A stretch of DNA of 64,000 nt from Eledone cirrhosa (Eukaryota), in assembly GCA_964016885.1 (NCBI GenBank), contig OZ024743.1:106330001-106394000 (forward strand), read 5' to 3'. The notes under the pieces are model-generated. The model searched no databases. It was not told the origin of the DNA and saw only the letters and a list, made by a program, of their open reading frames with translations. How positions within the stretch are numbered: position 1 is the first letter of the stretch; every line of letters begins with the position of its first letter. Shown piece by piece: positions 12,531-61,843 of the stretch. Both the position numbers and the translations under genes were made by a program.

Positions 12531-12589
<59 letters not shown>

Positions 12590-12704
12590 GCAATTAAGTA
12601 ATTTCTCTTCCTGCTAATTTTGAGTATATTCTGGGCTGCCCACATTGCAATACAAAGTCTGTAAAATCTATGTGTGTACGTATATATATATATATATATA
12701 TATA

Positions 12705-14505: not shown

Positions 14506-15455
14506 AAAGAATTAGTATACCTACCAACTTATTTATACAGGTGTATACTTATGCTAGAAGAGATATAGGTTTTGTCTTAGTAAATTTATGGTTCAATACA
14601 AAGAGATGTAGAATAATTATATAAAAGACGTAAAATAAGAAAAGTATAGTAATTAAGTCACTTACTTAAATTTCACTCCAACTAATTAGTTTTTGAAAGG
14701 GGATATACATAGTCTCCAAATGGAGACCATGGAAAATCCTTTCTTCATCAGGGAGTCATTCTCGGCTAAGATTCCTGGCGATGCGCGGACACAGGGATCC
14801 AATACAAAATTAATTCAGTGGATGGAAAAAAGCTAGCGCGGACTGAATTCCAAGCTATTGAAAACTTTACTTAGTTGGAGTGAAATTTAAGTAAGTGAGT
14901 TAATTACTATAATTTTCTTATTTTAAGTCTTTTATATAATTGTTCTACATCTCTGTATTGAACCACACAGTTACGAAGACAACACCTATATCTCTGCTAG
15001 CGTAAGTTTACACCTGTATAAATATGTTGGTAGATATACTAATTCTTTATAATTATCTCCAAATTATTTTGTTGAGCAAAACTTTGCCTAAATTACTACT
15101 ATGGTTCATAATATTAAACTTGGCTACTGTCTTTTTAACACACCACTCCTAAATGATTACCCTCGATGTCACGTGATTGATTCTTTTGAATGTGCCACTG
15201 ACCACGAGGGCAGTGAAGTTTTCAATGGCTTGGAATTTAGTCCGCGCTGGCTTTTTTCCATCCACTGAATTATTTTTGGTATTGGATCCCTGTGTCTGCG
15301 AATCGCCAAGAATCTTAGCCGAGAATGACTCCCTGATGAAGAAAGGATTCTCCATGGTCTCCATCTGGAGTCTATGTATATCCCATTTCAGAAACTAATT
15401 AGTTGGAGAGAAATTTAAGTAAGTGAGTTAATTACTATAATTTTCTTATTTTATG

Positions 15456-15465
<10 letters not shown>
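14506..15465. mobile_element. Non-coding pLTR-derived element with nested inverted repeats
   Basis: 14506-14685 is the reverse complement of 14870-15050; about 14620-14870 is the reverse complement of 15215-15465. Flanked by (TA)n. Confidence 0.85.
15329..15408 (+). ncRNA. Type I hammerhead ribozyme, canonical core
   Basis: cucc-CUGAUGA-a gaaaggau…auccc auuuc a-GAAAC-uaauua-GUU-ggag. The antisense copy at 14676-14755 has G12 changed to A. Confidence 0.75.
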
Positions 15466-15491
<26 letters not shown>

Positions 15492-16689
15492 ACATATACT
15501 TATATTTATACACACATAGACATATTTATATATGTATACACGCATTTACACATGCACACACACATACACACACGCACACATACACGCGCACACACACACA
15601 CTCACTCATATATATATTTTTATATATATATATATATAAATATATATTTACTGTTTATAATAGTGTAAGTATCTAAGGATCCTTGGGGTTTACACTATCT
15701 TAGTTTGTAATTGGGAAGGAAATAAAGCCCATCTGTATATATGCATATGGAAATTGCATGCATTTAATGACGCAATTATCTTGGAAATATGACTAGCTGT
15801 AGACTTTGCATAATATGCTCTGATATCCAAACCAATTCACGGTAGGGTGATTGCGTATAAGAAGCTTTTTCATTGTTATTTATTTTTAATGACGGATAAG
15901 AAAATGGAATGTTTCGTAGGGATTCATTAAATCAGATTTATTTCCTGAAATCTAAAAGAAATTCGAGCACATAGCTTTCAGAGTTGTAATTGAAATGATG
16001 TTAAAATTGACAACTCTTCAAATCTCCAGCTACTTCTATAAAACAAAGAACAACGATATTAATTGTTCATTAAATGGAATAGTTGTATGAATGGGACAAG
16101 ATATTAATGATTTCACTTTACTCAGGGAGTTCATCATTCGTTCCATATTAAAATAATGACAAGCAAAATAATCCTTTCTGCGAAAGTTAATCCTATGTGC
16201 TATAAAATGCCTTTATTATAGTGAAGGTCAACGTGAATCGCAACTCTTAAGCTTGTATACGTGCGGAATGGTAGTTAATGAAACAATGAATAGCTTCCAG
16301 CTTTCAATAGATATATATGTAGTTAGACTAAACACACCCAGAACAATATTGGGCAATATGCATTAGTAACAGAAGAAAGGAAACTATATGTATAATGTCT
16401 AATTCAAAGTTGATTTTTGCTACATACATAATACTTGTTTAAATTGAGAAGATATACTTATTTCTAAACCAGGTATCAAAATCCAACTTTCCAAACAATC
16501 TTATGTGTCCTTGTAAAGAAATAAATCAGATGCAAAATATATATTGATGAAACATGTAAAACAGAACTTTCATATCTGAAACGATAGAATATTTTGATTT
16601 GATTATGTTTTAATGTTGATGATCACCACCATCATATTCAGCAGCATATGCACAATTATTTAACGTGATGTATTATATTATTGATTGTC

Positions 16690-16866
16690 AGTATCGGTAC
16701 AGGTTTGGACGCCATGCTTTGCAGCATGGAAATACGGGACTTTACGATCTGAGTTCAAATCTCGCCGAGGTTAACTTTGCCTTTCATCCATACGGGGTCG
16801 ATAAAATAGAGTACCAGTAATGCACTGAGATAATTGCTGGCCTTGTGCCAAAAGTAGAAACAATTA
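16690..16866 (+). mobile_element. tRNA-like SINE
   Basis: Near-identical to 5395-5568. Confidence 0.85.
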
Positions 16867-17009
16867 TTCATTAAACCTTGAATAATATAGTCATTACAAA
16901 AGCTTTACTTAAATAACAATATTTTTCATTGATATACAGAACAGTATATTGTTAGAAAATATTACATAAAATGCATGTAAAGGATCTGATCACTGAAGAA
17001 AATGTTTTT

Positions 17010-20369: not shown

Positions 20370-20373
<4 letters not shown>

Positions 20374-23300
20374 AACAATACAATATAATTACCTCATTGC
20401 CAGAGGTTTCCCGAATAAGACGAATACAAGAAACGGTCCTCATTCGTTCGTCAGACAAGGCATTTTAAAACATAGTGAAATATTTGAAAAATCTCTTCAA
20501 GAAGGGCAAAAGTTTAACGGGCAAAAAAATATATAAATAAAAGTAATTACTCCAATGGATAAATAGCTCTTCCGTAGTACATTGGTTTAATAATATTAAA
20601 CATACAAATAGTTCTAGATTCACCCAATTTGGCATTGTAGACTTCTACCCTTCTATTACTCACCCTCCTTTAACGAAAGCATTAAATGTTGCTAGAAATT
20701 CATCAATATTTCTGATATTGAAGCGAATATCATTTTGCAGGCTAGTAATACTTTACTATTTACTAATAATAACACTTGGGTAAACAAATCTAACCCAGAG
20801 AACCCATTCGATGTCTCAATGGGTTCTCTTGACAGTGCTGACGTGTGCGATTTAGTCGGCCTATTATTCCTACACACACTTAAAGATAAATTCCCTAACC
20901 ATACCTTTGGGCTTTATCGCGACGATGGTCTAATACTTTCCCATACCACTATAGGCCATAACTTAGATAGATTCAGGAAAGACTTAATAAAAACCTTCGC
21001 TAGTTTTAATCTTAAAATTACCATTGACACTAACCTTTCTAATGTTAATTTTCTAGATATAAAGCTAGATCTGCCTGTTGCTTCTTATAAACCATAACAT
21101 AAACCTAATGAAAATTCAAAATATATAAATAAAGGCTCTTGCCTTCCTCCTATAGTTTTTTAAAAATCTTATCCCTAATATTAGCTTATTTTCAATAAGG
21201 CATCCCCCTACTATAATAAAACCCTTCAAAATAGCGGATATAGCGAACCGATTAAGTACATATCCAACAATACTAACTCCTTTAAATATAATAATAGGAA
21301 AAGAAAAATAATCTGGTTCACACACCCTACTCTTTAGCAGTTAAAACTAATGTAGGCAAAATATTTCCTATAGATCTTAGATAAACATTTCCGTAGAACA
21401 CATAGATACTATAAGATCTTCAATAGAAACAGTGTCAACATCAGCTACTCCTGAGGTCCCCTATTAAATTGTATATCCTCAATAAGAAAATACCCATAGA
21501 CCATTAAAATTGCTCCTGTAGAGTCAAAAGTGAATGCCCATTACAAGGTAAATGCAACACCAAAGCCATTGTATATGCGGCTAAAGTGACAACCACCAGC
21601 AACCACCTACCAGCCACCAGCGAACGATATGTGGGTATGCCAAAAGACAAATTCAAAACGCGTTATTACTCATATGTCGCATCTTTACAACAGCTCTGGC
21701 TAGCAGAATATGGCATTTGAAAGACCAAGGTATCCAATATAAATTAGATTGGTCAATTTTGAACCAATCTAAAGAATATCCAAGAGGAACAATAAGATGC
21801 GCACTCTGCATAAGTGAAAAATATTGGATTTTACAGAACCTTAAATCACCAAAAACCTGCCTAAATGCAAAAATAGAAATGTTCACCTGTTGCCCACACA
21901 GGAAATCACACTGGCTTTCCAGCTCATATAAACTTAACTCACTTTCAGATACTTATCCTCCATAAACTCTTGTTCTTCACTTTCCTTAACTTAACTTCTT
22001 TACACACTTCTCTTTCTGATTTACTTTTATTTTTATTTTTAACTTTATTTTTACTTCACATCCATTCGTGACCCCCTCTCTGCATTTTGATTCACTTACT
22101 TTATATCTTCAGAATTTTACATATTTTACTTCCTTTTCTTTCACTACCTGATATCACTTGTCAGTTGCGTTTTCAACTCCGATATATTCTGTTGTCCCTC
22201 AGCCGCTTTTATGTATGTTTACTTGCATATAATTTGTACTCATTTATTCATACGGCTGGTTTTTATAGCATGTATACGTGTAAGTGTGTATATGTGTGTA
22301 TACGTGTTTCTATATGTATACGAATGCATTCGTATGTGCGCGTGTGTGTGTATATGTCTCTGTGTATGCTTGTTTTTATATCTATGTTTTTTACATACTT
22401 ATATATGTGTGTGTGTGTGTGTGTATATGTATATATATATATATATATACATATGTGTGTGTGTATATATATATGTATATATATATATATATGGTCGCGT
22501 GCGTTTCGTGTGATTAGATGTACATGTATGCATATATATGTGCTTCGTGTGTATGTATGCGCGCTTTTGTATGTATGTACGCATGTATGTGCTTTTATCT
22601 GTACGTATTTATATATATTTTTATTTATATATATGTGTACGAACATCTGTATGTTTTCTATTTTTTATAGTGTTACTTTATAATTGATAACCGCTTCCTC
22701 TTACTTTCTCTTTGATTTAATTTTTTAATTCTCTTATATTTTCTCATAATTTCATTTTCATATTTTATATTTTTATATATGAATCGACCTTCAGCCTGGC
22801 ACTGCTTTGACTAATATATCACATGCATGTATGTGGTGGCGTGTGTGTGTGTGTGTTTATACGCGTGCTTTCATACTTGTATGTGTATATATTTCAATCC
22901 TTAGTCCTTGTGTCTGTATGTACGCTAACTCTATTATCTTACAATTTCTTTTTTCAACATATATTATATACGTATTTGTGGTCACACATACACTCATATG
23001 CTTGCCTTCATGTATGTACTTACGCATACATTTTTTTACGATACACATGAATTTGTACATACACACATATGTACATTTGTACGTGCATATACACAGATTT
23101 AAACACATACCCTTACTCTATGTCCTTATTTTGTTTTCATATATCTCTTGCGTTACATTTATTTATATTTTTTTTTTGCCTTTCTTGTGGAGATTTTTCA
23201 AATATTTCACTATGTTTTAAATTGCCTTGTCTGACGAACGTATGAGGACGTTTCTTGTATTCGTCTTATTCGGGAAATCACTGGTAATGAGGTAAGTATA

Positions 23301-23450
23301 TTTTATTGTTTATTATACATTAAATTTAGCTCTGTAACATACATAGAGCAATCTTCACTCCTATGACTTTTTCAATTTTCAACGGAAACTTCAATACTTA
23401 TATATATATATATATATGTATACACAAATATATATTAGCAGTATGATAAC
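20370..23450 (+). mobile_element. 5'-truncated Hydra-like PLE with inverted 5' pLTR (20370-20497), RT-EN (20500-21965), microsatellite-rich 3' UTR and 3' pLTR
   Basis: FDVSMGSLDSADVCDLVGL, GLYRDDGL, VNFLDI, LDWSIL…CALCISEK…CCPHR. 20370-20497 is the reverse complement of about 23190-23317. Confidence 0.9.
23222..23295 (+). ncRNA. Type I hammerhead ribozyme (antisense copy at 20389-20462)
   Basis: uugccuugu-CUGACGA-acguaugaggac…gucuuauucgg-GAAA-ucacug-GUA-augagguaa. Confidence 0.7.
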
Positions 23451-23989: not shown

Positions 23990-25615
23990 CGTTGTAACAG
24001 TGGGGAGATTGTTCAGCTCAGCTGAACAATCTTATGACTGTTTCCAGCATGGCTTCAGTCAAGATGTCAAAGATGAACGTCTATAAATCTTGGCTTGGAA
24101 ATGAGTCCCCTTGCATTGCGGTATACGTAGGCACGAAAGATTGCAGCAGAGAGGTTGAAGGTAAAGGCGTCCAAAGTTAAGACATCGGAGGATTTTGGGG
24201 TGTAAGCTTCCGTCTACGGAATAAGAAGGCCTCCTCCACAACTACTATCTAGAACACGTCTGATGTTCCCTATCTTCGGAGCGGCGTATCCTCACGAGTT
24301 GGAGAGAATAATGTTTATCTCCTAAATCTTCTCACAACATTTTCTGATGTACAGAGGCTGAGGTCACAAAAGCAGTTAAAACACTCAAATGGGGAAAGGC
24401 CGCTATGGAAGATGAAATCCGGCCCGCGATGTTAAAAGCCTTAAATATAGGAGGTATTCTCCTGCTGATTCCTTGGGCGCAGGTGGGTTGGATCTCTGGA
24501 AAACCACCTAAGTAAGTGCAATCGGGGGTGATAATCCCAATTTTGAAAAGAAAATCAAGAAATATTGTTCCAATTACAGAGGGATTTTTTTTGTTAAGCT
24601 TCTCCTGCAATGAGATTTTCGAGTCCAAGTTTTGACCCCGGACGCAGCACAGATGGCCAATATTCACAGTGCAGCAGATCGTCGCCAAATGGTGGAAGTA
24701 TTGCTAAGAGGTTTATTCTTATTTTGTCAATCTTGAGAAGGCATACGACCGCGTTCATGATGTGGAATGCTATGCTGAATTATGGGATCGATGGTCTGCT
24801 TCTTTCTGTCCTGATGTCTCTATACGAATGCCCGCGTATTTGTGCTCGGGTAAATGGTGCTAAATCGGAACAATTCAATGTAGGATGTCGAGCTCCGCCA
24901 TTGGTACGTACTGTCACGTATCCTGTTCATTTTTTACATGAACAGCATTGGCATTCGCAGCCGTGATGGTAGTGGTGTCATGACTGGCGTGTATACATTT
25001 AGTCAGCTGCAATTTTCGGGTGACATTGTGTTATTTAATTCGGCAGAAAGTAATCACCGACATTCACAGTATTGTTTCAGGCCGAATATTGCATCGCTGG
25101 AATGAAGATGAGTACTGCAAAAACTGTGACACTCCTCTTCTCAGGGAAGCCTGGGAAGTGCACTCTCTATCTGAATAAATTTCCACTGAAGCAAGTAGAG
25201 AAGTTCAAGTATATTGCGAACGTGTTCACGAGTAGTGGGCGGTAGGAGACTAAATTGAGTGCAGGAATTGCAGTAGCTGGTGTAGTAATGCGCTAATTTC
25301 AGCCGTAAAAGTCAAGTTCGCTATCGTCAATTCGGTATTCATGCCAAACCTTCCTTATGGTTATGAATATTGTGTAATGACCGAAAGAATACGATCGTGA
25401 ATACAAGCAGACGAAATGGGCTTCATGAGAAGGGCCTTTCGAGAAAAGTAACTCGATAGATTGCTTAGCTCAAAGATCAGAGCGTCACACTAGAGGTAGA
25501 GCTTTATCTCCGAATTGAGAGATTACAGCCGCAATATTCCGGGAACATGCCCAGAATGTCTCAGGAAAGAATCGACTGACGGATTTTACGGGCGAAGCCA
25601 AATGGCAGGAGACAC
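23990..25615 (+). mobile_element. Decayed RTE-clade LINE RT region
   Basis: Fragmented frames: TEAEVTKAVKTLKWGKAA.EDEIRP.MLKAL, GVIIPI.K, FRPGRSTDGQ, FV.LEKAYDRV, PLKQVEKFKY, LPYGYE..VMTER.RS.IQA.EMGF.R. Confidence 0.85.
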
Positions 25616-25918: not shown

Positions 25919-26564
25919 GTATATTTATATTGGTAAACGGAATAGAACATGCTGACAAATTGTTCACAGTGAAAAATAGTTTAATTAGGAATAAGTGAGA
26001 ATTAGTAATGGTATTGGTTAGTATTAAGTTTTGGTTTTAAGTGTTACCGGTTGCGCATTTCTAATGCTTTCAAAAATAATTTTGAGATAGAGCATCAGTG
26101 TTGTTTGCTCTGATATGATTAGTTTTGGGAATTCTACCTGGTTTTATGATAAAAAAGTTGCTCCAGCGGTATTAAAATAAGTTTTGCGCCAATTCGTGTT
26201 GCAAAAATTCTTGTGGTCAAAACAATTTTGATTGGTCGGTAGAGGTCATGTGAATGTAAAAAATTGATTTTGCGCCAAATGTAGGTTTGTGTCGGCTGAC
26301 TGAAAAATAAGTCTTTCACAACAAACATGTGTGTGTGTGTGTAGTAGTAGTAAAGAAGTTCGTTGTTGTGATAATGGTCAGCAGGGTGTGTGTGCGAACC
26401 ACAGATTGTTGACAGTTCAAATGCCTATTAAGACAAGTGTGTCTGTGTGTGTGTGTAGCAGAGTAATTCGTGGTAGAGGGATGGTCAGTAGCAATGTGTC
26501 TGTAAGTGTGGGAGATATTTTATCATGTTAAAAGATATTTTTTCAGCTCTTGTCTTATACGGAT

Positions 26565-26644
<80 letters not shown>

Positions 26645-26909
26645 GCGTGTGCGTGTGCGTGTGTGTGCGTGTGCGTGTGTGTGTGTGTGTGTATATGTCT
26701 CTTTGTATGTTAATGTACGCGTGTGTATGTGTGTGTGTATATATGTGTGTGTGTTTGGGGGTGGGTGGATCAGTATTTATTTCTGGGTAAAATGGTGTAC
26801 ATTATTTGATATTTTCAGTAAAATCGATTCTCTCAATAGAACATCAAAAACCTTAATAATAAAAGGTGTGAAATGATATATAGTATTGGCATAATACCAA
26901 CATGTGTGT

Positions 26910-27305
26910 GAGTGTGTCCAGATTGTACGTACCGCAAGGCGGATTCATTAGGCCTTGCCGTATCGGAATACCTGTGCACAAATTTGTATCTGGAGTGTGT
27001 CCAGAAATTGTATACCTGTGCCCAAATTGTATACCTGTGCACAAATTGTACATATGTATCTGGATTGTGTCCAGAAATTGTATACCTGTGCACAAATTTG
27101 TATCTGGAGTGTGTCCAGAAATTGTATACCTGTGCCCAAATTGTATACCTGTGCACAAATTGTACATATGTATCTGGATTGTGTCCAGAAATTGTATACC
27201 TGTGCACGAATATGTATCTGGAGTGTGTCCAGATTGTACGTACTGCAAGGGGAATTCATTAGGCCTTGCCGTGTTGGAATACCTGTGCACAAATATGTAT
27301 GTGCC
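26910..27305. repeat. Minisatellite (~20-bp subunits, ~111-bp higher-order period) inside the PLE 3' UTR
   Basis: Repeated ttgtatacctgtgcacaaa and tatctggagtgtgtccagaaa blocks. Confidence 0.85.
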
Positions 27306-27443
27306 CATCAGTGTGCAATGCATGTGTGCGTTTATGTATGTGTGTGTGTCGGCACGTTTATATCTATAGACATCAACAGGTATGCAAATTTGTGTATATT
27401 TGTGTTGCACCATAGAACATGTGTGTTTACGTATGTCATTGTG

Positions 27444-28004
27444 TTAATATGTGGGTAGAGATGTATGCTGATGTAGGTATGTACGTTGACGTGTGTATGT
27501 TGTGGGTTCGTCATAGGGAGAAGTGTTTAGACGTGGTCCGTATTTGTTAATAAAGTAAGATTCCTTGCTGATGCGCTGGGTGTGGGTGGCATTATCTTTA
27601 AATTTGTAGAGGGGAAAGATTCTGAAGTTGGGATGATTTTGGGCGGCACAGGTATCAATGTGTTCACTCAGTGGTATTTTCCTGTATTCCCGTATTTTAA
27701 TTTGTGATCTATGGACAGTCATGCGTTGGCGGAGGCTGTTTTTGGTCTGGCCTATGTATTGTTCTCGACAACCTGAGCAAGTTAATACATATATTAGAAT
27801 TTCTGATGCGCATGTGAAATTGTGTTTTACTATAAAACGTTGTCCTTCTTTGAAATAGAATTCCGAACCCTCTATTAGGTTGATGCAAATGCCACAGTTG
27901 GGTCTATCGCATTTTTTTACTGTGGGTTTCGTTGTTGTGGTTGGCAGTACTTTGGCATGTGTTAAGATGTTTTTCATTGACTTGGATTGTCTTTTGCTCT
28001 TCAT
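27444..28004 (-). pseudogene. PLE Zn-finger plus GIY-YIG endonuclease
   Basis: KCDRPNCGIC, FTCAS..LIYVLTCSGCREQYIGQT, LRQRM..H and E.YFI.KY.P.LN. Confidence 0.92.
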
Positions 28005-28308
28005 GATATCGTGTGTTCATAGAATTTGGTTCATTCTATGGTCCTTTTTCAATACAGGGATGTTCTGGAGGATGGTGTCAAAGGCCTCATTGTTGAGGGG
28101 TTGTGTGTGGAGATGTATGGAAGAGCTTTTAGTTTCGGTTGATTTACTTTAGGGTGTCTAAGGTCCTGGGTACTGAGTTTTAGGGCACGTTGGATTCCAT
28201 TGCCAATTAGTGATGCAGGGTAGTACCTGCCTATGAGTGTGTCCTTTAGTTCTTGTAGCCGTAGGTAGCAGGTGTTTTTATTGGAGACTATAGTACATAT
28301 TCTTTTGG

Positions 28309-29760
28309 CTAAGTTGTAGGGAATATTAATTTTAACGTGTCTAGGGTGGCAAGAGTTGAAAAGAAGATATTACTTGGAGTCTGTGAGCTTGTAGTATATG
28401 TCTGTTCCTTTTTTTTGTTATGGATCTTAATGAGGATGTCGAGGAAGGGGAGTTGTTGATGGCTGTATTCCATCGTGAAGTTAATATTCGTTTTGAGCCC
28501 ATTTATAAGGGTGTGAAATTCTTTAAGTTTCTCGATGTTTTCGTGCCAAAGGATGAAGAAGTCATCTAGATATCGCTTCCAGTTCTTTTCTATGTGTATG
28601 TGGAGAGTGTTTCCAAATTTGTTTAGGACTTTAGTGTAGAGGGTGATTTCCAGGTATCCCATGACTAGGTTGGCATAACTGGGGGCTGTTTTCGTTCCCA
28701 TAGCGGTCCCAGATCTCTGCCTGTAGGGTTTGTTATTGAAAACGAAGTAATTGTTCTCCAAGATAAATTTGAGTCCCTCTATCACGAATTCTTTTTTGAT
28801 GCGTTATGGGAGTTCATTGTGGTAATTATCCAGCCAGAATTGGATAGCTTCTATTCCTAGGTTGTGGGGGGTGTTGGAGTATAAGTTGACTACATCGAAC
28901 GTCACTAGTAGGGTTTGTTCAGAAAGTGGCATATTAGGGAGGTGATTGAGCATATCTAGGTCGTACCTTATAATAGCTTTTGATGTGTTTGAGAAAAGGC
29001 TTGAGAAGGGTATCAATGAAGTTGTTAAGGCGGTGGGTTTTGCAAGCGGGGCCTGCAATTATAGGTGTTAATTTGAGATCATTGGGTGAGGGGACATTGA
29101 TGACTATGTCTGTGGCTTCCTTGCATGCCTACTTATTAATTCGTTTTTATGTACTTTAGAGATACCGTAGAAAAGGCTGGATTTACTTGTGAAGTCTGTG
29201 ATGAAGCTGAATTCCTTGTTAGTGAGTCCTTCTTTGTATTGCTTGATCAGAGTTTTTAGGTTTCTCATAATTTTCTGTTGATTGTAGTGTTCAGCCTTTT
29301 CGTAGTATGTTTCGTTTTCCAGAGTGGAGAGTGCTAAGTTGATATAGAATTCTGTCTCCATTAGGACTACTGTACTCCCTTTATCAGCCTCTTTAATTGT
29401 AATGGTTCTGTCGGTTTTTAATCTATTTAATTCTTCCCATTCTTTCTTGTTTAGGGTTGGCTTGTGTTTTTGTCTGTGCAAGTGTTGGTAAGGGAAGTTT
29501 GTGATGTGTTCACAGAATTCGTCAAGGATTTTATTTCTACCTTTTGATGGGGTGTAATTGCTTCTATTTCTGGCTGATTCATCCTCATTGTACTGGTCGA
29601 ATAGTTGTTCACTGAGTCGTAACATTCTACAGAAATCTGTGATGTCTTCCTTCATTTCATAGTAGTTAGGAGGTAGTGGGGTCGGTGTGAATTTAAGACC
29701 ATTGGAGAGTAAGTTGATAAGGTTGGGTGTTTGTTCTTCACTAGTAAGATTGATAATTGT
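28309..29760 (-). pseudogene. PLE reverse transcriptase
   Basis: GLKFTPTP, KEADKG, FDVVNLY, QRSGTAMG, RYLDD and LPFLDI. Confidence 0.92.
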
Positions 29761-31062
29761 TATTACTATCGTTTCTCCTGCCTGTTTTGTGTTATTTTGT
29801 TTGCCTGTATCTGTGTGCTGTGTCTAAAAAATGGTTGGGGTAGAGGGGTTGTCTGCTGATGTTAAGTCGTCTCCTGTGTTTGTTATATTCCTTGTTGTTG
29901 TAAAATGTGGTTCAGGTTGGTGATTGTAGATTGAATGGGGCGTACATGTACTGCGAGTATGGGTGTGTGTTTCTATGTGCCATGTTGGATTGTGGTGTTA
30001 TAGGTGGCCTACGTTGTTGTTTGTATCGTGTGGTGTGGGTTTGTTGTGTATTGTGGAAGCGAGAGTTGAGAAAATGGAAATTACCTTGCTGTCCACATGA
30101 AGCGGGGAAGTTGTTACATCTATCATGGTGGTGGTATCTTTTCCCTATGTTTGACGATAGGCATCCGCGTAGTAGTTGAGTGATTTGGTATGGTGTCTCC
30201 TTGAAGGGGGAAAGTTGTAAATGTCATTCTGGGGGAGATGATTTCTAGGGTTTTTGTTCCTTCTTATGGTAGCGAAGTTGGGAAGTTCATCTTCGGTGTG
30301 GTGCTTCCTTCTTCGTTTGTTAGTGGCTTGGGGGTTTGCGAAGTTGTTGTGTGGTTCAGTTATGGGTTTTCCTATTTTTATGAACGGGTTATTGGAGGTG
30401 TAATCCGTTTGAAATGTCGATTCATAGTGTAGGAACCAAGCGGCACTTTTTTCCCAGCGTTGAAGGGATTTCAGTTCTTCTCTGTTGCAGTCCCCTTTCA
30501 ATAATTTGGAGATCTTCTCTACCTTGGAGCCTTCCGTTTTATTGTTGATTTCTAGGAGGATCTCTTCATCGATGGTTTTGATTTTTTCCTCATTTGTCTG
30601 GGCCCTCAGTTTAAGAAGTTCAATTTCTGTCTTCATTTTTTCCAATGCCATTCTTTCCCTAAGGTGTCTTTGAGGTTCGGATTCATTTGGAATGGACTTT
30701 ATTTGTATTTTACGGGGGAGAGTTAGAGGGGTTGAGTTAAGCCATTTTTCATATATCTCCGCTTTGTTGTGATTCTGTATCATTTTCCAGAATGAGAACT
30801 TTCTGTCTTTGAGGGATTTGTTCCATTTTGGAATTGTTCGAATTTTCATTTTGTATGAATCAATCTCACATGGTTCTTCGTTGGTTTTTCCTGGGTTGGT
30901 AGAAGTGAACATAGTTTGGATAGTATATATATTCAAGAAAGAAGAGTGACATGGTTGGCTTTACAAAAAGGGCTTTATTCACATTGGTGACAATTGTTTC
31001 TTCGTAGTACCCTAACTGGACTACATCTAAGTGGATTACCTATTACAATAACTTGTTATCCC

Positions 31063-31790
<728 letters not shown>

Positions 31791-36327: not shown

Positions 36328-37203
36328 TATATTTGTATATATATATGTGTGTGTATGTGTGTGTTTTTCTCTGTGTGCGTGTTTATATGTATATATGTTC
36401 TACCTATGCTTCAAATGCTAGTGCGAAACAGTAACTCAGGCATTCGATGCACTCCGTTACATACAATATTACAGTGAAGCGTGCAACAGGAAAATGAATT
36501 TATGAATCCAACATTATCTAACTCAGAACAAAGAAAACAATTCGAAGAAAGCCACGTCATAAACAATAATACTTTAAACAACACCTTGTATCCCTTATCA
36601 AAAAGAAGCAATATAGTTTCCTTTGCACCATCCATCACTGGTTTTACGAATGTTATGGCTCTATAATAACAGACCTGAAACAGAAATCTGTTTATCCCCT
36701 CTAACGAGCCAACATTTAACCATCGTTTCGCGCTATTATTATCCACTGTCACATCTTTAATCACATCTCATTTTTTTTATCTCTGTATGGATCAATTACA
36801 AAACAGATACCTAACATACGGTCTTTAAATTGAACTACATCCATATTGAGTTCGTCATTTTATAGATCGAGTGAGCACAATATTACAGCTATACATAAAA
36901 ATAATACATTTTAATATTGTCATCTATATATACATGGTGGATGGATAAAGTCCATTATATTGAAATCAGTACATGACTGGTAGTATATATTATCGAACGT
37001 TGGACGAAAGAAAGTAAAGTAAGTAACTCTAATCATTTAATAGTATTTTCCCGATGCACCAGCGATTTTGCAACTCTCTCGCTTTCTCTAAGTAAGCAAT
37101 GACAAAAGGATAACGTCATTCACCCAACCACCTCTCTATCTCTCCGTGATCTGTGTATCTATAAACACACACGTACACATACGCACACACACATGCTCAC
37201 ATA

Positions 37204-38520: not shown

Positions 38521-38550
<30 letters not shown>

Positions 38551-38558
<8 letters not shown>

Positions 38559-39654
38559 CAAATAACGAAACGAAATTAAATTTCGTTTCGTTTGTAACTC
38601 ACTTTTGTATGACTGACGCTTAAACAATTAAGTTAAAAGTGTACATCCACATATGTATACTGAAATACTAGTATGCATATAAATACACACACGTATACAT
38701 ATGTACATGTACCGAGTTTTTCACTGGACACTTTACTGTGAGTGTCCAGCTAGTCTGTATGTAACCAAACAGACAAACCGGGTTTTAGAGTCATACGGGT
38801 TTTCAAGGAAACACCTTTACTCTATTCTCCAGAGAGCCAGACAGGAATATTGGACTAGTTTCGATGTTATTACATCTCATCATCAATATATACCCATCTT
38901 CCGGCTTCTCTAGAGAATCGTAAAAGCACATATCGTTATATGCTTTTTCTATGAAAATTAGTAGTGGGCAGACTAATTTGCACAGAACGTGAGTTGTACG
39001 CACCGGTTCAGCGGAAACGATAAAAACAAATAACGAAACGAAATTAAATTTCGTTTCGTTTGTAACTCACTTTTGTATGACTGACGCTTAAACAATTAAG
39101 TTAAAAGTGTACATCCACATATGTATACTGAAATACTAGTATGCATATAAATACACACACGTATACATATGTACATGTACCGAGTTTTTCACTGGACACT
39201 TTACTGTGAGTGTCCAGCTAGTCTGTATGTAACCAAACAGACAAACCGGGTTTTAGAGTCATACGGGTTTTCAAGGAAACACCTTTCCTCTATTCTGTGC
39301 AAATTAGTCTGCCCACTACTAATTTTCATAGAAAAAGCATATAACGATATGTGCTTTTACGATTCTCTAGAGAAGCCGGAAGATGGGTATATATTGATGA
39401 TGAGATGTAATAACATCGAAAATAGTCCAATATTCCTGTCTGGCTCTCTGGCGAATAGAGTAAAGGTGTTTCCTTGAAAACCCGTATGACTCTAAAACCC
39501 GGTTTGTCTGTTTGGTTACATACAGACTAGCTGGACACTCACAGTAAAGTGTCCAGTGAAAAACTCGGTACATGTACATATGTATACGTGTGTGTATTTA
39601 TATGCATACTAGTATTTCAGTATACATATGTGGATGTACACTTTTAACTTAATT
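38551..39654. mobile_element. ORF-less pLTR array: direct repeat (period ~468 bp) plus inverted copy
   Basis: 38551-38827 matches 39021-39296; 39293-39654 is the reverse complement of 38627-38987. Flanked by (TA)n. Confidence 0.9.
38847..38889 (-). ncRNA. Minimal type I HHR with A3 (sense copy at 39391-39433)
   Basis: auauug-AUGAUGA-gaugu aaua acauc-GAAAC-ua-GUC-caauau. Confidence 0.65.
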
Positions 39655-39756
39655 ATATATATATATATATATCCCTATTTACCTATCTCTCTCTATCCCT
39701 CTTTCCCACCTCTCTCTCTTTATATACACACACACACTCACTCACACACACATACA

Positions 39757-42637: not shown

Positions 42638-42692
<55 letters not shown>

Positions 42693-42779
42693 GGAGGTGA
42701 GTTTTATTGTAGTACAATAAAGTAATGCAGATCTCGGATAAGAAGCACTCTACAGTTTGTAGGACTGGAGTATACATAA

Positions 42780-43094
42780 TATATAAGAACAAAAGATGGT
42801 TAAAAGAGTTCCATGTATTTTATTATGCGCATTTCAAAAACAAATATCATCATGCAATAATATTTGTGTTTTCATCAGATAAAACAGGAAGACATGATAT
42901 GAAGGTTAAAAAACACTTGTGGATAGTGCAGTTGATATGTTGATTTAAAACTGCACTATCCACAAGTGTTTTTTAACCTTCATATCATGTCTTCCTGTTT
43001 TATCTGATGAAAACACAAATATTATTGCATGATGATATTTGTTTTTGAAATGCGCATAATAAAATTCATGGAACTCATTTAACCATCTTTTGTT

Positions 43095-43101
<7 letters not shown>
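42780..43101. mobile_element. ~320-bp near-perfect hairpin element with one intact HHR per strand
   Basis: Arms 42780-42933 and 42949-43101 are reverse complements around a ~15-nt loop. Confidence 0.9.
42998..43064 (+). ncRNA. Minimal type I hammerhead ribozyme (mirror at 42818-42884, minus strand)
   Basis: uuuuau-CUGAUGA-aaacacaaauau…auauuuguuuuu-GAAA-U GCGC A-UA-auaaaa. Confidence 0.85.
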
Positions 43102-44581: not shown

Positions 44582-47400
44582 GATCCAAGACCCCGACGAG
44601 TGATTCCGGGCTTTTCGACAGCTAGATCTAGCTAACCTCAGAGGATACAGACATCCTTAAGTCTGCATCATGCAACTTTACCCTATAACAAACAAGAGAT
44701 TTATAACAGCAGGGCAGTAAAACGACGCAATGAGACCAGATGCAGAAGGAAATGGAACAAAGAAGACGACAACGTCGCAAACAAGTGTCACGTTCTTGCA
44801 AAGCTGGGAATAGCACGTGGTGTGGATGAACGGTTGCTTCAGTATTGGAAAAGCGTTGAAATGAGTGAAATCTTTGATCAAATTGATAGGAGAGATAAGG
44901 AAAATTGAACGTAGTAATGGGCTCGTCGACAATGAATTAGTCGCCCTGGAAATTGTTGCACAAACCATGAATGCTAATATTGGTAACTTAGATGATGCAA
45001 ATGTGGAAAGTGGGAAACCAAGAGATTACAATGAAAATGAATCAACTGATAAGGAATTAGCATACGAAACAGTTATAAAGGGAAGATTATCGACCAAAAT
45101 ACAGGGAAGGAGTGGAAAAAAATCAAGTGTCTGAAGATATGGACGTTGCAAGTTTGAATGAAAATGAAAATGAAGTAGTGGAGGAAACAAGAATGATTAT
45201 CAAATAACTGTGAGGTTTCTTTAAAGATCCTAAATTCAATAAAACCGTGAAAACTTTGGAATATAGAAAGAGGTCATTTAGCAAGTGAAAAAAACTACCT
45301 AAACCAGGCAATGGTGTATAGAGAAGCTCATGATATCACCACTCGAGAAAATTAACTAATATAAGATCTCTGTTGGGTGCGAGATTATCGTCAAGCAAAA
45401 GTAAGAGGAAATGTAAGGAAATCTGGTGGCAGATAATTTTGGAAAGGGATATGATTGTGCACAAAAAGTATCTAGGTAGAATAGATGCATGATACGGAGG
45501 AACATAGAAAAGGCAAAGCAGGAGAGAAATGACACATAGAACTGAGGAGTGAAGTGAAGTTGAAAGGTTTGAATGTAGTAATGGAGGAAATGAAAGAGCG
45601 AATTAAGGCAAACTCTAATCGGGTTAAGTGCTATATAGTTAGATAAGGACAATACGAACATAAAATATTGTTCTCTGCAAATGATAATTGTTTTTAGAAC
45701 ACTCTTAGTTGGGGAGTGTTTTAGACATTGCACCTAATGATAAATAATCAACATACATTGATAACAGCTATGAGGGTTTTCGTGAGAGCATAACAAAATA
45801 CCAGAGGGATAAAAGATATTCATCATAAGCTATCTATTCAAACAAAACTGGGATGGGAACAAAGTTTCAAATGCCAACTCGAAATCTCCTGGAATAGACA
45901 TTGTACATTCAAGGCTAAGAAAGCATCGAAATGCTGGTGTGCTACAAGCTGAACTTCCAAGTTGGATGGCTGAAGGACAGACAACGTTGATAATGAAGCA
46001 AGCAAAGAAAGGTCTGTCAGTTGGAAATTACAGGCCGATTGCTTGCTTGAATACATTTTGGAAGCTGTTGGCTGGCAACTTTGCTGCAAAAGTGTATGAT
46101 CACTTGCTTCAGAATGAGATACTACTTATCGTGCACAAGGAGTGTAGGAAACATTCCCAAGGAATGAAATATCATCTTGATTTTGACAAGCCGATTATGA
46201 ATAACTTCAAAAGCTGTCGAGAGAAGATATGAATGGTGTGGATACATTTTAGGAAAACCCTTAAAGTGGTTCATCTATGGGCATCGAAAGATTTCTGAAT
46301 GTTTGGGATAGCAGACTAGGTCAGTAACAGATTTTAGCATGACTCTGTGGGAGACACATTTGTAAGCAGGAAATACCTAGGTGTGATTACTACAAAAAGA
46401 GGGATATTTCAAGGAAATTTCCTTTCACAGATGACATTTGTTACTGTGACGTTCCCATCATCATGGCGTTACGGGACACAGACAGCTATCAGGTGGAAAA
46501 GCGAAGATCTACAATCATTCACCTACTTTTCATGGATGATCAGAAGCTCTTTGGCAGGAATGTATTTCAGGATGATCCACTGGTCAAAGCTGTGGTGCAG
46601 GGATATTCGGATGGAGTTTGTTATGGTAGAATGTGCCTGACAAAGTGGTAGGCATTTACATAATGGTGATACTGAGTTACCAGGTGGAGAGGGTATTGGT
46701 TAGCCTGTGATAGTAGGAAAAAATAACTGGGTAATTTGAAGATTGACAAAGTTCTAACCCAGAAAAATGTGAAGGAAGTCGATCTAAATATATTAGAACC
46801 GCTACTGAAAACGAAATTGAATAGAAAGAAGTGTATTCTTAATTACTGCTATCAATGTATTAGTTACTAAATATAGTGCGGCGCTCTTGAATTGTAGCAA
46901 GGAAAATAATAGGGAGGTTGAATAGGCTAATCTGAAAGTAAATGTTGGACAATTGAGCGTTGCAGCCAAAGGCAAAGTCGTAAGGCTATGTACACCGAGC
47001 AGCATGAGCGTGACAAATTACGTGGCAGGTTCTTAGGTTCATATTTGACCACTAGTAAAAAAAGAACTTTTAAAGTTGTCGAAAGCGGAGCCCTATCCGT
47101 GAAACTATTGAAATAAAGAAAATTATAAACAGAGGCTACTGTCTGAGAAAATGAACACAAGATAGAGTATGGAATTATATGGATAATTTGAAAGGAAAAC
47201 AAAGGAAGTAATATTAGGATCTCCATGGAATTGGATGGAACAAATAAGTGTATCTTATGTGGGAAGAAGTTGGAAAGTGTGACATACGTCGGGAGTTTCT
47301 GTGATATTCTTGCACAGAAGGAATAATAAAGGCGTCACTATAGGTGGTGCTTACACCTCCATTGGTTCTTGTTCTAGAAATATTGATTGGCAATCAATGA
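44582..47400 (+). mobile_element. Decayed R4/Dong-like non-LTR retrotransposon
   Basis: PSWMAEGQTTLIMK…NYRPIACLNTFWKL, KRGIFQG, HLLFMDD.KL and a CCHC-like CILC…SVTY…C…RH..V..LHW. Confidence 0.8.
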
Positions 47401-49162: not shown

Positions 49163-49166
<4 letters not shown>

Positions 49167-50101
49167 AAAGGATAACAAGGACGATTGGTTACTCCTTCGT
49201 TACATTTATTGGTATGTGACGCGCGTTTCGCCCCTGACAACTTCAAGGTTCGATCTGTATCGATCCTACCCGACTCAAAGATTGGCAGCTCGACGGACCC
49301 TTTACAATGCTATAAGAAAATGAAATACTACGCCACCATCACCGATACTCCCCCACTATCTCTATATATATCCACACGCGCGCATGCACATACATGTTTG
49401 TATATATGCATATAGATATATATATGTGTGGATCTATGTGGGCGTGTGTATGTGTGTGTATATAAGTTTGTACGTGTGTATATATATCAGTATATATGCG
49501 CATGTATATATACATATACAACGTATTTGTCAGACAAAGAGTGTCTAGGTATGTATATCCCCATGGACTCGACACCACCAACACTTCCACCACACCACCA
49601 CAAACGCCACTACCATAAACAACAACACGACAACCACGCCCCACACACGCCAACCCATCTACCGACAACCCACTACCTCCAAACCACATCCCATCCCAGT
49701 CAGCGACCGTCACCACCATCTTATCATCACATCCACCCCTACATACACTACAGGCCAAAGCCAATCCGCCATACCACACCACAGCCCATCGCAGCCAGCG
49801 ACCGTCACCAACATCTTATCATCACATCCACTCCCACATACACTACAGGCCATTAAATCCCTTTGATCCTTCTCACCAATCAAAACAACTCATATTTTCA
49901 AACTCTTGAACTTCTGTCTTTACCACATAGCATGTATTTAATTTTCTTATAGCATTTTAAAGGGTCCGTCGAGCTGCCGATCATTGAGTCGGGTAGGATC
50001 GATACAGATTGAACCTTGAGCTGATCAGTGGCGAAACGCGCGTCACCTACCAATATATGTAATGAAGGGGTAACGAATCGTCTTTGTTATCCTTTCAATA
50101 T
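49163..50101. mobile_element. Fold-back element: arms 49163-49327 and 49934-50101, CA-rich body, HHR-like 3' half
   Basis: Reverse-complementary arms; GAAAC-GCGC-GUC at 50033-50044; ~57-bp duplication at 49701 and 49796. Confidence 0.8.
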
Positions 50102-50199
50102 ATTACACTCTGTATAGCTCTACACCTCATCACAGAAGTGAACCTAAGCATCTGGTGCTAACCAGGGTGAACCTGCAGTAACTCCAAGTTACACCCCCT

Positions 50200-50278
<79 letters not shown>

Positions 50279-51799: not shown

Positions 51800-52394
51800 T
51801 GGCAAAATTAGATCTTAATTCATTTTTATTTCCTTAAAACAAGAGTGCTGGACATCAAATTATTTGAATAATGTCAGGTGAAAATTTGCATAATCAATAT
51901 TTATACATAGATAGTGGTATACACCTAAATGTTTGCACTATTCTCTCTATCGAGTAATAGAAAAAACATATTAAATAGACGCATAATGTGTCCTGAATAT
52001 TATTCGTACCTTACATATCGATCCATACGCAGGGCAAATGCAACAATTTTGAAACTGATGTTTTTTTAACATTTCTCTTACAACGCTATTTATCTAGTGT
52101 TCCCCAAAAAATATATTCAAAAACAAAAAGAACATTTTTTCACGAATGGATTCAAAACCATAATTAAAGGGAAATAATTCTTCAAAATTCTATATGATTT
52201 TTAGACATATATTCTAAAAACTTAAATAAACAGCATTTATCATCTGATATGTACGTATATATATATAGATGTACGTATTTACATACACATAAATATATAT
52301 ATATACTTGTATAGGCTCATTTACACATCTTCATATATACATATACCAATATATATATTTATACACATGTAAATATTATTATTTATACACACAC

Positions 52395-52570
52395 AGTATC
52401 GGTGGAGGGTCGGACGCCATGCTTTCCAGCATAGTTACGTCCCTTTACGATCTGAGTTCAAATCCCGCCGAGGTTGACTTTGCCTTTCATCCTTACGGGG
52501 TCGATAAAATAAAGTACCAGTAATGTACTGGGTATTTGCTGGCCTTGTGCCAAAAGTATAAACAATTATT
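52395..52570 (+). mobile_element. tRNA-like SINE
   Basis: Near-identical to 5395-5568; a 3' remnant also occurs at 54390-54448. Confidence 0.85.
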
Positions 52571-53339
52571 TATACACACATATATAAACGTATATGTACG
52601 TATATGGACTCATTTGGTTGTCTATATAGATGCACGCACTTGGATGTCTATACAGATGTACACTGTGGCATTAAGAGTTTTAGTATTAGGTATATATCAC
52701 TCATACATGCACAGCTATACCTGATAGTATATAACTACATACCAACCTATACAAGTATATACCCATATATATGATAGCATACAACTATAATTGATGGTAT
52801 GTAACCGACACTTCTAGTCAAAATTAGGTCAATGCGTTTACATATGCTATAGGCCAGAAGAAATCAATGGAGATTTCTCACGGAAAAAGGTTGAAAAGGC
52901 AGACATAATCTTAGAGCAAATATGCATACTTATATTCATATTATACACATACTAATTATCCTAGAATAGAATAATCCAGCCATCTATCAAACGGTATAAG
53001 CATATAGGCATACTGTTGCATGCATAAATATATATCTACGTATTCATATATCTGGATTAATATATATGTACATATATACACGCAATATATGCACATACCA
53101 ACAAATACACATACATTCGCTTATATATATTCAAACACATCCAAGGTAACATAATATATATATATATATATATATATGCATCCCCAATCTTGTACAAAAT
53201 ATATTTAATAAAAAAAAAACCGAACGAGAGCCACCACTAGGTGGGACGATGTACCTTTTTATAGAACCAATAAGATAGGCGACTTGGACAATTAATTACT
53301 AATTAAATCCTACTATTCAAGTAATTTGGTATCGACATT

Positions 53340-54240: not shown

Positions 54241-54575
54241 TTTTTTAACTTTATTCGCAGATAAAGATTCGAGGGCATTCCGTGAATTTTTTATAGTTGT
54301 AGATTTCCTGATTTTTTCATTATTACCTACACTTTTACTACCAATTTCATACATATTACTACTACGATTACTAATATATTAGCATTATTAAAGTACCAGT
54401 AATGCATTGGGTAGTTCCTGGCCTTGTGCCAAAACTAGAAACAATTATTAATGAAATGTTTAGAAATTCAATTTTTGATGTAAAATATCTTACTAATATA
54501 CGGTGATCTAGACAATGCTTCATTGTAATACCATGAAGTGACATTAAAGATATCTTCATTATTTAGTTGTACATG

Positions 54576-54614: not shown

Positions 54615-54618
<4 letters not shown>

Positions 54619-56656
54619 AACGAGTATGATCCCGACGGCTGAGCTCAAGCCGTTTCGACGGCTAATTCTGGACTAAATGAAAATGTTTATCCTGGTATAT
54701 GAATAGCCGAGCTTCTCAGGGGGTAATTCCATATATGGTAAAAGTGATTGTCACAAGGATTGGTCAAAATTTTGTTGTTGAGACGCATAATTCTATCATG
54801 GCAATTTGTGGACGGAAGGGGTAGCTGAACCTGCCAGTAGAAGAAAGAGGGAGAGGGGGTGGAGGAAACCCAGTCGTGCGTTGATAGTGCCAACTACAGC
54901 TGGGCAGGAGGTCAAAAACGTATACTAGAGAGGGGGAGGGGCAGGAAGTCGAAACAATAAGTAAAACAATATGGGGTAAATATATAGAAAAAAACCGACA
55001 ATGTTAAAAAACAATTAAATGTAAAAAAAAAAAATTTCTGGTTACTATTCCCTAACGACAGCCATCAAGTCTCTCACTGGTACTGCTAGACTATAGAAAA
55101 GTTTCCTAGGTGGGACGGAATTATAATGAGACCCTTTTAAGAGGTAGTAGTAATCAATCGAGTATATCTTACTGTGACGGGTCAACAAGTGGGGGGCCAA
55201 AATACTAAAGAAACTACCACGAAATAATAATTCAGAGTCCTGAGACCAATACGAAATAAAGGTTTCTACCCCAGGCACAGGGCCAGCAACCACCCAGTGC
55301 AAAAAAAAAACTGATACGAAATAATAATTCAGAATCCGGAAAAAGAATACTAATATTATCTCTAAGGGTACCGCTACGATACAAACATTCTAGTGCAAAC
55401 TACATAAATGCTCGTACGTAGTATATGAAAAATTTGATACGGAAAATTAATTCAGAATCCTCCCCCTCCCCTCTCCCCCCAAAAAATAAATAAATACTGA
55501 TATACGAGAAATTAAAGCAAAGATACCACTAAGAAATATAGAAAGCACGGAAAAGGGCAGCCATCGGATAAGAAGGCAAGTATCCGGGGTCTCACACATT
55601 TGCTATAAAAGGCGGATCGGCCAATTCTATCATAGAATAGGGGAAGGGGGTGGGGGTACTGAGGCTACAAAGAACCGAGGGGCTGCCTCGGGTGGGCGAA
55701 AAAGTGAAAAGGACGACGACAAAGAAAGAGGACTGGGGTGGAAGGACTAAAAATATATAAAAGAAGAGCTTACGTCTACATTTGCAAGCAGGCGTTACCC
55801 ATTACAAAATCAGCCAACACTTACACGGAAGGACGCCGTCCGTGCAATTTATGCTCGGAGGAAACTTTACAAATGCTGTTTTCGACGCACCAACTCCTAA
55901 ACAAGGAAGACGAACTGGTAACTGCATGTAAACACAGATTGCGTAGGACTTACCTCGCCCTCAAAACCCTTAATGAACCGGGGGTATATACTAGGGCTAT
56001 AACACCCCACTTGCCCGTCACCGTAAGATATACTCGGTTGATTACTTATAACTCTTAAAAGGGTCTCATTATAATTCAGTCCCACCTAGTAAATCTTTCT
56101 TTAGTCTAGCAGTACCAGTGAGAGACTTGATAGCTGTCCTTAGGTTATAGTAACCAGACATTTTTTTTTTACATTTAATTGTTTTTTTAACATTCTCGGT
56201 TTTTTTTCTATATATTTACACCCTATTGTTTTACTTATTGTTTCGACTTCCTCTCCCTCCCCCTCCCTAGTATACTTCTTTGACCTCCTGCCCAGCTGTA
56301 GTTGGCACTATCAACGCACGACTGGGTTTCCTCCACCCCCTCTCCCTCTTTCTTCTACTGGCAGGTTGAGCTACCCCCTCCGTCCACAAATTGCCATGAT
56401 AGAATTATGTGTCTCAACAACAAACTTTTGACCAATCCTTGTGACAATCATTTTACCATATATGGAATTACCCCCTGAGAAGCTCGGCTATTCATATACC
56501 AGGATAAAAATGTTCATTTAGTCCAGAATTAGCCGTCGAAACGGCTTGAGCTCAGCCGTCGGGGTCCTACTCGTTCCTATTACCCACTCTACTACCCTAA
56601 GTATTGAGTACTTTGGTGCGTTATGGTCCACCTGGTTCCTTACGACATTTCCTTCG

Positions 56657-56659
<3 letters not shown>
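54615..56659. mobile_element. 2-kb fold-back copy of the 1-1870 PLE family: arms 54615-55182 and 56014-56580
   Basis: Reverse-complementary arms. About 55400-55815 matches 1-441. 55815-56000 encodes ANTYT.GRRPCNLCSEE… HHRs at 54629-54724 (-) and 56470-56565 (+). Confidence 0.92.
56470..56565 (+). ncRNA. Type I HHR motif with CUGAGAA core
   Basis: acccc-CUGAGAA-gcucggcua…uagccguc-GAAAC-ggcu ugagcuc agcc-GUC-ggggu. Confidence 0.7.
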
Positions 56660-60238: not shown

Positions 60239-60311
<73 letters not shown>

Positions 60312-60384
60312 CTGACGGTAGCTAAGGTGCTTCCAGAGGCGGTATGCCGGTTGAACACTCTATGCTCTTACAGAGCAGAGTATG

Positions 60385-61296
60385 ATATAATATAAAACGA
60401 AAAATTAGTGATGCACCTGAACTCAATTTATTGTGTCTTACAATTGTTTCGCCGGCGAACAGCTCGAGACACGATCATTGTGTGAATCTGTCTGATTCGG
60501 GATCTGCAGGTTCGACAGACACGTCTAATGATTTCGGAGCAAATTCCTTCACCGGGGTGTTAGCGTCAAAAACATCCTCTTCGTCCTGTTATTGGCTGCT
60601 GCTTTTCTACGTCATCGTAAATCTGACCAACAGGTGTGAATTCCACTGACCATCAGCTTTTCTTTCTGCCACACTTCGATGAATTACTACTGGGTTTGGT
60701 ATTTTACGCGTCCACGCGCTCACTCACATACACATACACACACACACACACATGTACCCCCCCCCCCCTCACACACAAACACATACACACACACACACAC
60801 ACAATCAAATAGATAACAACATCCGTAAGCATAGACTCCCGCTATACACACACTTAAGCAGAACAAATAAAAAAGACCATAGACATACGTATACTCAGAC
60901 GCCTGCCTTCATGCCCATATACAGGCGCAGATACAGGCTCGCTCACAAACACACACACACACAAACACGTATATATATATATATACACGCACACACACAC
61001 ACATATATATACATACACACACATATATACACATACATATATATACTCTATATATACACACAAATAGCATATATACACAAAGTCATATAAAGATACACAA
61101 TGGGTCATAGAATGGGTCATATATGAAATGATGTATCTTGTTATAAGTATGCACATATATACTATTCATATATGTGCATGCTTATAACAAGATGCATCAT
61201 TTCACGTATGACCCATTCTATGCCCCATTGTGTATCTTTATATGACTTTGTGTATATATCCTATTTGTGTGTATATATAGAGTATATATATATATA

Positions 61297-61347
<51 letters not shown>

Positions 61348-61542
61348 CTTTTTAGGCGTGCGTGGGCCTGTATGTGAATATGCACATATTTGTAAGAGCT
61401 TATATGAGCCAGTGTGTGTCTGTGTGTATATACAAGCACCCAATGTAGCGAAGGGGCTTGTTTTTGTGTGTGTATATATATAGGTATGTGTATATATGTG
61501 TGTGTATGTATATATATATAAATGTGTGTGTGTATGTGTGTG

Positions 61543-61603
<61 letters not shown>

Positions 61604-61817
61604 TTGCGAGCGAGTCTGTATATGTGGCTGTATATGGGCATGTAGGCAGGCGTCTGTGTATGCATATGTCTATGTTTTTTTCAGATTCAGAATCAGACAG
61701 ATTCAGAATCAGACAGATCCACACAATGATCGTGTCTCGAGCTGTTCGCCGGCGAAACAAGTGTAACACAATAAATTGAGTTCAGATGCATCACTGATTT
61801 GTCGTTTTATATTATAT
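60385..61817. mobile_element. 1.4-kb imperfect palindrome centred near 61163
   Basis: Three nested arm pairs: 60385-60498/61706-61817, 60880-60950/61598-61675 and 61045-61160/61168-61285. Confidence 0.85.
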
Positions 61818-61843
61818 GCATATATATACATATATAGAAGCTT

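Follow-up and report, generated by a model that had tools for sequence, protein, structure and literature searches.

A retrozyme-like, hammerhead-bearing 468-nt unit with the insertion footprint of a PLE

The locus described here raises the question of how a short ORF-less unit carrying a hammerhead ribozyme (HHR) came to stand both in partial tandem and in inversion, and whether a circular RNA has to be invoked as its template. It lies in a stretch of 64 kb that was analysed as a whole and is referred to below as the window. Its layout probably records a single recent insertion event, in which a non-autonomous 468-nt element with an HHR was mobilised in trans by the reverse transcriptase (RT)-endonuclease of a Penelope-like element (PLE), with a linear RNA as template. 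Comparisons with published work refer to the accessible portions of each source.

Layout and coding content of the repeat unit

Self-comparison resolves the insertion into three copies, A, B and C (Table 1). Copy B repeats positions 1–277 of A (277 bp) with one mismatch, and copy C is the inverse of A positions 75–436 (362 bp) with two; identity among the three is 99.4–99.6%. The initial annotation had described a full unit, a direct repeat of ~275 bp and an inverted copy of ~360 bp, and all three are real, at 468, 277 and 362 bp. The differences lie at 38819/39287 (A vs. B) and at 38828 and 38858 (A vs. C), one of the three being the last base of the match of B. The insertion holds 1.59 units in tandem, the GC content of the element region is 34%, and no further copy of the 468-bp unit besides A, B and C was found within the window. 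Both flanks consist of (TA)n, within which a target-site duplication cannot be read.

With the sense unit numbered 1–468 and cleavage predicted after 167, the order on the sense strand is flank, inverted 394 to 33, junction, 192–468, 1–468, flank. The outer ends of the insertion are sense 394 and sense 468, so 74 nt are one-sided; this tail is found at the left end and in B and is missing from the outer end of C. Counted from the cut site, the two ends lie 227 and 301 nt downstream and copy B starts 24 nt downstream. The direct arm (A then B, 745 nt) and the inverted arm (362 nt) each cross one cut site. A hairpin had been reported as terminal. It is present, but it sits in the one-sided tail and is not terminal in the monomer.

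Table 1. Features of the locus, given as positions in the window
Feature	Positions	Strand	Details
Copy A	38552-39019	- (ribozyme, sense strand)	Full 468-nt monomer; self-comparison
Copy B	39020-39296	-	Upstream, 5'-truncated, pLTR-like; sense 192-468; self-comparison
Copy C	39293-39654	+	Inverted and 5'-truncated; sense 33-394; 3' end abuts (TA)n
One-sided tail	38552-38625	-	74 nt; sense 395-468; between two putative RT start sites
Hairpin	38564-38592; repeated 39032-39060		13 bp and 3-nt loop; within the tail
Microhomology	39293-39296		4 nt, common to B and C at the inversion junction
(TA)n target, left flank	38525-38554		2-3 nt overlap with the element end
(TA)n target, right flank	39654-39672		
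Type I HHR of copy A, extended stem I	38839-38899; core 38847-38889	-	A3 at 38883; predicted cut 38853/38852
HHR of copy C	39381-39441; core 39391-39433	+	A3 at 39397; Rfam HH9 24.7 bits

The earlier description of the unit as ORF-less is upheld, as no coding frame was recognised in it, and at 468 nt it resembles the short ORF-less repeat units of non-LTR retrozymes. Without a stop codon, the longest frames run to 87 aa on the sense strand and 76 aa on the antisense strand, with a further one of 108 aa across the B/C junction. The 87-aa and 76-aa frames, which are chance frames across the HHR, had no homologues in search collections that are largely non-animal, and the 108-aa junction frame had no Pfam family. 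The ORF for RT plus GIY-YIG that stands between the pLTRs of an autonomous PLE is absent from the locus. The initial annotation had itself allowed that the unit might be merely the pLTR of a coding PLE; upstream of the repeat, however, stands the same unit and not an ORF. Because the tail runs directly into this same unit, the donor already lacked an ORF.

Searches for relatives of the unit among phages and plasmids (blastn) and for a gapped HHR pattern in prokaryotic genomes both gave no matches, and with collections that are largely non-animal these blanks say little. A tRNA-derived head for the unit was considered and rejected, there being no tRNAs within the window. A search for Pol III boxes by consensus gave only one-mismatch matches, and no promoter was assigned. 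Runs of 4–5 T occur inside the unit.

The hammerhead and its A3 core

Copies A and C carry a 43-nt HHR core with a 6-bp stem I, a 5-bp stem II and AUGAUGA, as first annotated, whereas copy B has no HHR. In stem I, 6 bp are followed by a UAU/U internal loop and then by another 7 pairs; stem II comprises 4–5 bp and helix III is a 2-bp palindrome. The annotated GAAAC-UA-GUC is correct for copy A; copy C reads GAAAA in place of GAAAC and loses the second pair of stem III. Calling the motif minimal does not hold, as it is of canonical size, its stem I runs on past the internal loop and it aligns end to end with Rfam HH9. In a min-HHR, as defined in the accessible text of PMC4209133, helix III is absent or nearly so, helix II is long, helix I is short and an extra base follows A9. 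The present motif has a helix I of 6+7 bp, a helix II of 4–5 bp, no extra base and a helix III of 2 bp. This architecture matches the canonical metazoan form of PMC4209133, and retrozyme HHRs are likewise described as classical, not minimal (PMC7229834). The locus thus shares the classical type I HHR architecture of non-LTR retrozymes.

A descriptor with position 3 left free matched once in the window and never in 150 window shuffles or 5000 unit shuffles. The match to Rfam RF02275 (Hammerhead_HH9) covers model positions 1–77 with 30 bits, its E-value being 3.8e-5 when 1.4 kb were searched and 0.0018 over the full 64 kb. The score is below the gathering score of 52, and at the gathering threshold Rfam gave no matches in the window. 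The locus resembles this family in its full-length alignment, the internal loop in stem I and a 6-nt loop II, and differs in the A at core position 3 and the 2-bp helix III. Matches to microRNA families at the E-value threshold were discarded as microsatellite-like hairpins. An alternative core register with U3, three bases earlier, was also rejected since by inspection its stem I fails at the first pair. The ribozyme strand of copy A folds as a linear RNA to -160.8 kcal/mol (z -10.1), with none of 100 shuffles as good. As a circle the ribozyme strand reaches a z of -12.7 against -6.9 for the opposite strand (30 shuffles each). A highly self-paired monomer is a further feature shared with non-LTR retrozymes.

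The A at 38883 and 39397, core position 3, faces G8 in copies A and C, and both therefore lack the Watson-Crick 3-8 pair of an intact core. In the active fold C3 pairs with G8 (PMC3884650), and C3G or G8C each abolishes cleavage (PMC11167929). The natural change on record at positions 3 and 8, in the accessible literature, is a compensated U3-A8. A literature search found no measured C3A hammerhead, and nothing on position 3 was found in the accessible text of PMC4889925 and PMC11014351. Loss of activity is for this reason an extrapolation from C3G and G8C, and by analogy with them the A3 core would most likely cut poorly or not at all. That A3 is a working variant is unsupported.

Both arms probably derive from one donor RNA, and A3 in both arms therefore counts as one observation, not as conservation. 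A control is available in a neighbouring Hydra-type family, whose HHR-like motif has U3-A8 in one insertion (1755–1872) and C3 against A8 in both arms (54615–54735, 56460–56580) of another, at 54617–56577. A 3-8 mismatch common to both arms can therefore belong to a single insertion. PLEs in this window evidently carry damaged hammerheads along, and the A3 change in this locus is probably just damage. The change makes the motif a run of three UGA triplets, and slippage is a possible origin.

Insertion footprint and the RNA template

PLE insertions are described as combining a partial tandem, an adjacent inverted 5'-truncated copy and a one-sided tail (PMC8557442), with a comparable arrangement in Pen2a_Av (PMC3846280). 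In vitro, a PLE nicks and extends both strands at AT-rich sites, and its RT starts at two internal RNA sites, the sequence between them becoming the tail (PMC11167929). Targeting of (TA)n is stated for Hydra and Neptune PLEs in the accessible literature. The locus has each of these PLE-type features: a pLTR-like partial tandem with an inverted 5'-truncated copy, a 74-nt one-sided tail and (TA)n on both flanks.

The neighbourhood provides a control for this comparison, namely the nine outermost inverted-arm pairs whose arms both fall inside about 3 kb, the present locus included and nested pairs and long-range interspersed matches left out. One arm end lies at most 24 nt from a (TA)5+ run in 9/9 pairs and at most 12 nt in 7/9, compared with 4.2% of random positions, while the other arm end lies 32–111 nt from such a run in all nine. 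The 74-nt tail is longer than the 30–40 nt given for PLE tails in the accessible literature and falls within the 32–111 nt of the window. The eight other inverted-arm insertions with a one-sided tail differ widely in arm divergence; three enclose PLE coding remnants and five have no recognised ORF. These remnants are a GIY-YIG domain at 8529–8861 (Pfam) and, by eye, endonuclease- or RT-like frames at 55708–56058 and 20696–21965. Endonucleases in the window have either a Neptune-type CX4CxxC linker (27444–28016) or a Hydra-type CxCX5C linker (458–1039), the Neptune and Hydra labels used here resting on these linker motifs and not on a tree. Since the architecture recurs in 9/9 pairs, it is the ordinary PLE footprint of this genome. 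The present locus stands apart in having a repeated unit that is complete with 468 nt and contains no ORF.

An insertion from linear RNA would begin with transcription of a tandem donor locus into a structured RNA longer than the unit. A PLE protein would nick both strands of the (TA)n run, the target being observed and the enzyme suggested by PMC11167929 and PMC8557442. RT would then have two internal starts, sense 468 and sense 394, separated by 74 nt, if these ends have the meaning given to such sites in PMC11167929. The products would be a 745-nt cDNA (A then B) and a 362-nt cDNA (C), joined via the 4-nt microhomology; the lengths and the microhomology are observed. Both cDNAs would have crossed an uncut HHR site, and a weak A3 core would let the linear RNA persist as template. 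The stop of B 24 nt short of the next cut site might fit an RNA 5' end made by an active upstream HHR, and a random stop this close has a chance of ~5% (24/468), noticed post hoc. Stalling of RT at a long stem ending near sense 197 could also have caused this stop. In the accessible text of PMC11167929, uncut RNA is the main PLE substrate and HHR mutants insert normally in vitro. For this layout it is enough to have a linear RNA that is 745 nt or longer and whose downstream HHR is uncut.

The initial annotation had inferred a circular template from an apparently permuted monomer copied more than once. That an ORF-less unit was copied more than once through RNA stands. The circle is not needed, as two internal RT starts explain the ends; the supposed start of the unit is the tail end, and the apparent permutation therefore requires no circle. 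With one HHR per strand, the locus cannot itself release a monomer or a circle. It is nonetheless conceivable, though unlikely, that a 468-nt circle, cut by the HHR and ligated, was reverse-transcribed 1.6 times round by a PLE RT, with the integration steps unchanged; such a template would agree with the layout as well. More than one unit does stand in tandem, and the HHR is a canonical type I with a palindromic helix III, as in retrozymes that yield circles (PMC7229834). Folded as a circle, the RNA is very stable and restores stem I across the junction, and circles are invoked for PLE tandems in PMC4209133. However, a circle requires two cuts, yet the 3-8 pair of the captured HHR is broken; the ends are independent of any circle, and the direct arm never passes the cut site twice. 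The unit length of 468 nt exceeds the 150–450 bp given in the accessible text of PMC7229834 but is within the 51–972 bp of 10.64898/2026.07.22.740005. A bolder form of this idea, very improbable as it stands, has A3/G8 fixed in a successful multicopy family that still cleaves, helped by a loop-loop contact, a dimer fold or a PLE protein, with PLE RT copying the 468-nt circle from two internal starts. If true, A3/G8 would be a natural hammerhead variant with an uncompensated 3-8 change, and the sequence of the locus would link retrozyme circles directly to PLE integration.

Two further explanations dispense with a non-autonomous family or with RNA-level copying altogether. That the unit is the pLTR or UTR of a coding PLE, and the insertion a truncated coding element or a one-off internal deletion, is quite improbable. 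The frequency in the window of 5'-truncated PLE insertions without a recognised ORF (five of the eight others) speaks for it, as does the match of retrozyme families to pLTRs in Xenopus, reported in the accessible literature. A truncated coding PLE, however, has ORF sequence upstream of the pLTR, whereas here the tail leads into the same unit, and no coding remnant was found at the locus. It is scarcely plausible that a single solo copy was rearranged at the DNA level, by fold-back or through microhomology, or that the layout is an assembly artefact. The copies are near-identical and share the 4-nt microhomology, and all three inter-copy differences are A/C-G/T transversions, against 28/97 in other arm pairs. 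Such transversions are the class typical of damage or base-calling error. Yet the copies have private differences, both outer ends lie on (TA)n, and the one-sided tail recurs in eight other insertions of widely varied arm divergence. Insertion by a PLE from linear RNA is therefore preferred.

Relation to known elements and neighbouring insertions

Judged from its sequence, the element would behave as a non-autonomous passenger of PLEs, of the same kind as non-LTR retrozymes. Metazoan non-LTR retrozymes (Cervera and de la Pena 2020, PMC7229834; Li, Clavereau and Pollet 2026, 10.64898/2026.07.22.740005) are alike in their short ORF-less low-GC unit, classical type I HHR, head-to-tail arrangement, highly self-paired RNA and the presence of PLEs in the genome. 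The locus differs in having only 1.59 units, one HHR per strand and A3 against G8. It also has an inverted arm and a tail, which are not part of retrozymes as described in the accessible text of these two sources. An active retrozyme is defined by two HHRs (10.64898/2026.07.22.740005), and here B has none and the two that are present lie on opposite strands. At most, the locus represents a monomer-type derivative. As neither an intact core nor two HHRs are present, it is termed retrozyme-like and not an active retrozyme.

EN+ PLEs (Penelope/Poseidon, Neptune, Hydra, Naiad) share with the locus the partial tandem, an inverted 5'-truncated arm overlapping the direct arm, the one-sided tail, the (TA)n target and an HHR within the pLTR-equivalent (PMC8557442, PMC3846280, PMC11167929). 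As far as the accessible text of these sources goes, the locus differs from them in lacking an RT-EN ORF, in an entire repeat unit of 468 nt and a tail of 74 nt, and in an HHR with canonical 6/4-5/2-bp helices and an extended stem I that is not a min-HHR. Non-autonomous Chlamys elements such as MRC1 are likewise ORF-less, form pLTRs and insert head-to-tail. They differ, according to the accessible text of PMC8557442, in being algal, in that most lack canonical HHRs, and in a 3' end that matches the autonomous partner.

A PLE origin of animal retrozymes has already been argued in print (10.64898/2026.07.22.740005; PMC7229834), the published case for their movement by PLEs being built, in the accessible literature, on pLTR homology, HHRs in common and co-occurrence. 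Support of a different, mechanistic kind comes from an ORF-less unit that combines a classical HHR with a complete PLE integration footprint. The footprint also makes the choice between circular and linear templates testable from the genome, through cut-site crossings and through enrichment of dead cores among crossed HHRs. No description of a PLE footprint on a retrozyme was found in a literature search that covered non-subscription journals and the accessible text of 10.64898/2026.07.22.740005. A single locus with a probably damaged core is a small addition, modestly useful as a footprint of PLE mobilisation.

Comparison of the unit with 12 window regions with PLE ends, on both strands, gave only TA/CA-rich, microsatellite-like matches. 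The 10-mer CTTTTAACTT occurs four times in the window (6945–6954, 38630–38639, 39098–39107 and 39641–39650), near the 394 end in each copy and at the tail end of a Neptune-type insertion at 6945. Its sharing has a chance of ~0.02 over the 19 ends compared, was noticed post hoc and is a lead only. That insertion (6946–10054) and another Neptune-type PLE insertion at 25922–31063 both lie in (TA)n and have long 3' regions rich in microsatellites; HHR scans of their ends found none. The second is a nearly full-length Neptune-type PLE broken into several frames, with a 114-bp tandem repeat (2.3 copies, 98%) inserted in its 3' region at 26968–27303.

Several other insertions in the window carry HHR-like sequences. 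In the Hydra-type PLE family (54617–56658 and 1–1870), stem II of the HHR-like motif contains a long insert, helix III is 6 bp and the tail measures ~80 nt. At 42690–43096 a near-perfect 330-bp palindrome lies in (TA)n, with a CUGAUGA-type HHR per arm, a long stem II, a palindromic helix III and a tail of ~80 nt; it is a PLE insertion reduced to two inverted ends. By eye, the inverted-arm insertions at 49165–50201 and 60306–61822, with tails of ~104 and ~75 nt, retain GAAAC together with a palindromic helix III and a plausible stem I, lack CUGANGA and are possibly core-less hammerhead scaffolds. The PLE at 20371–23398 has, again by eye, RT- and endonuclease-like frames, inverted arms, a tail of ~85–100 nt and a degenerate HHR whose core reads CUGACGA and whose stem II is long. 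Inverted-arm insertions in (TA)n with no recognised ORF are found at 14507–15466, where a CUGAUGA HHR-like motif lies near 15340–15400, and at 10090–10891.

Four frames (12241–12597, 24598–24966, 36411–36767 and 45813–46651) were judged by eye to resemble LINE-type reverse transcriptase fragments, and Pfam at E 0.01 gave no match for them. A dispersed repeat of ~180 bp, of SINE-like size, recurs with 74–93% identity at 2801–2969, 4898–5568, 16683–16875, 52394–52574 and 54389–54456.
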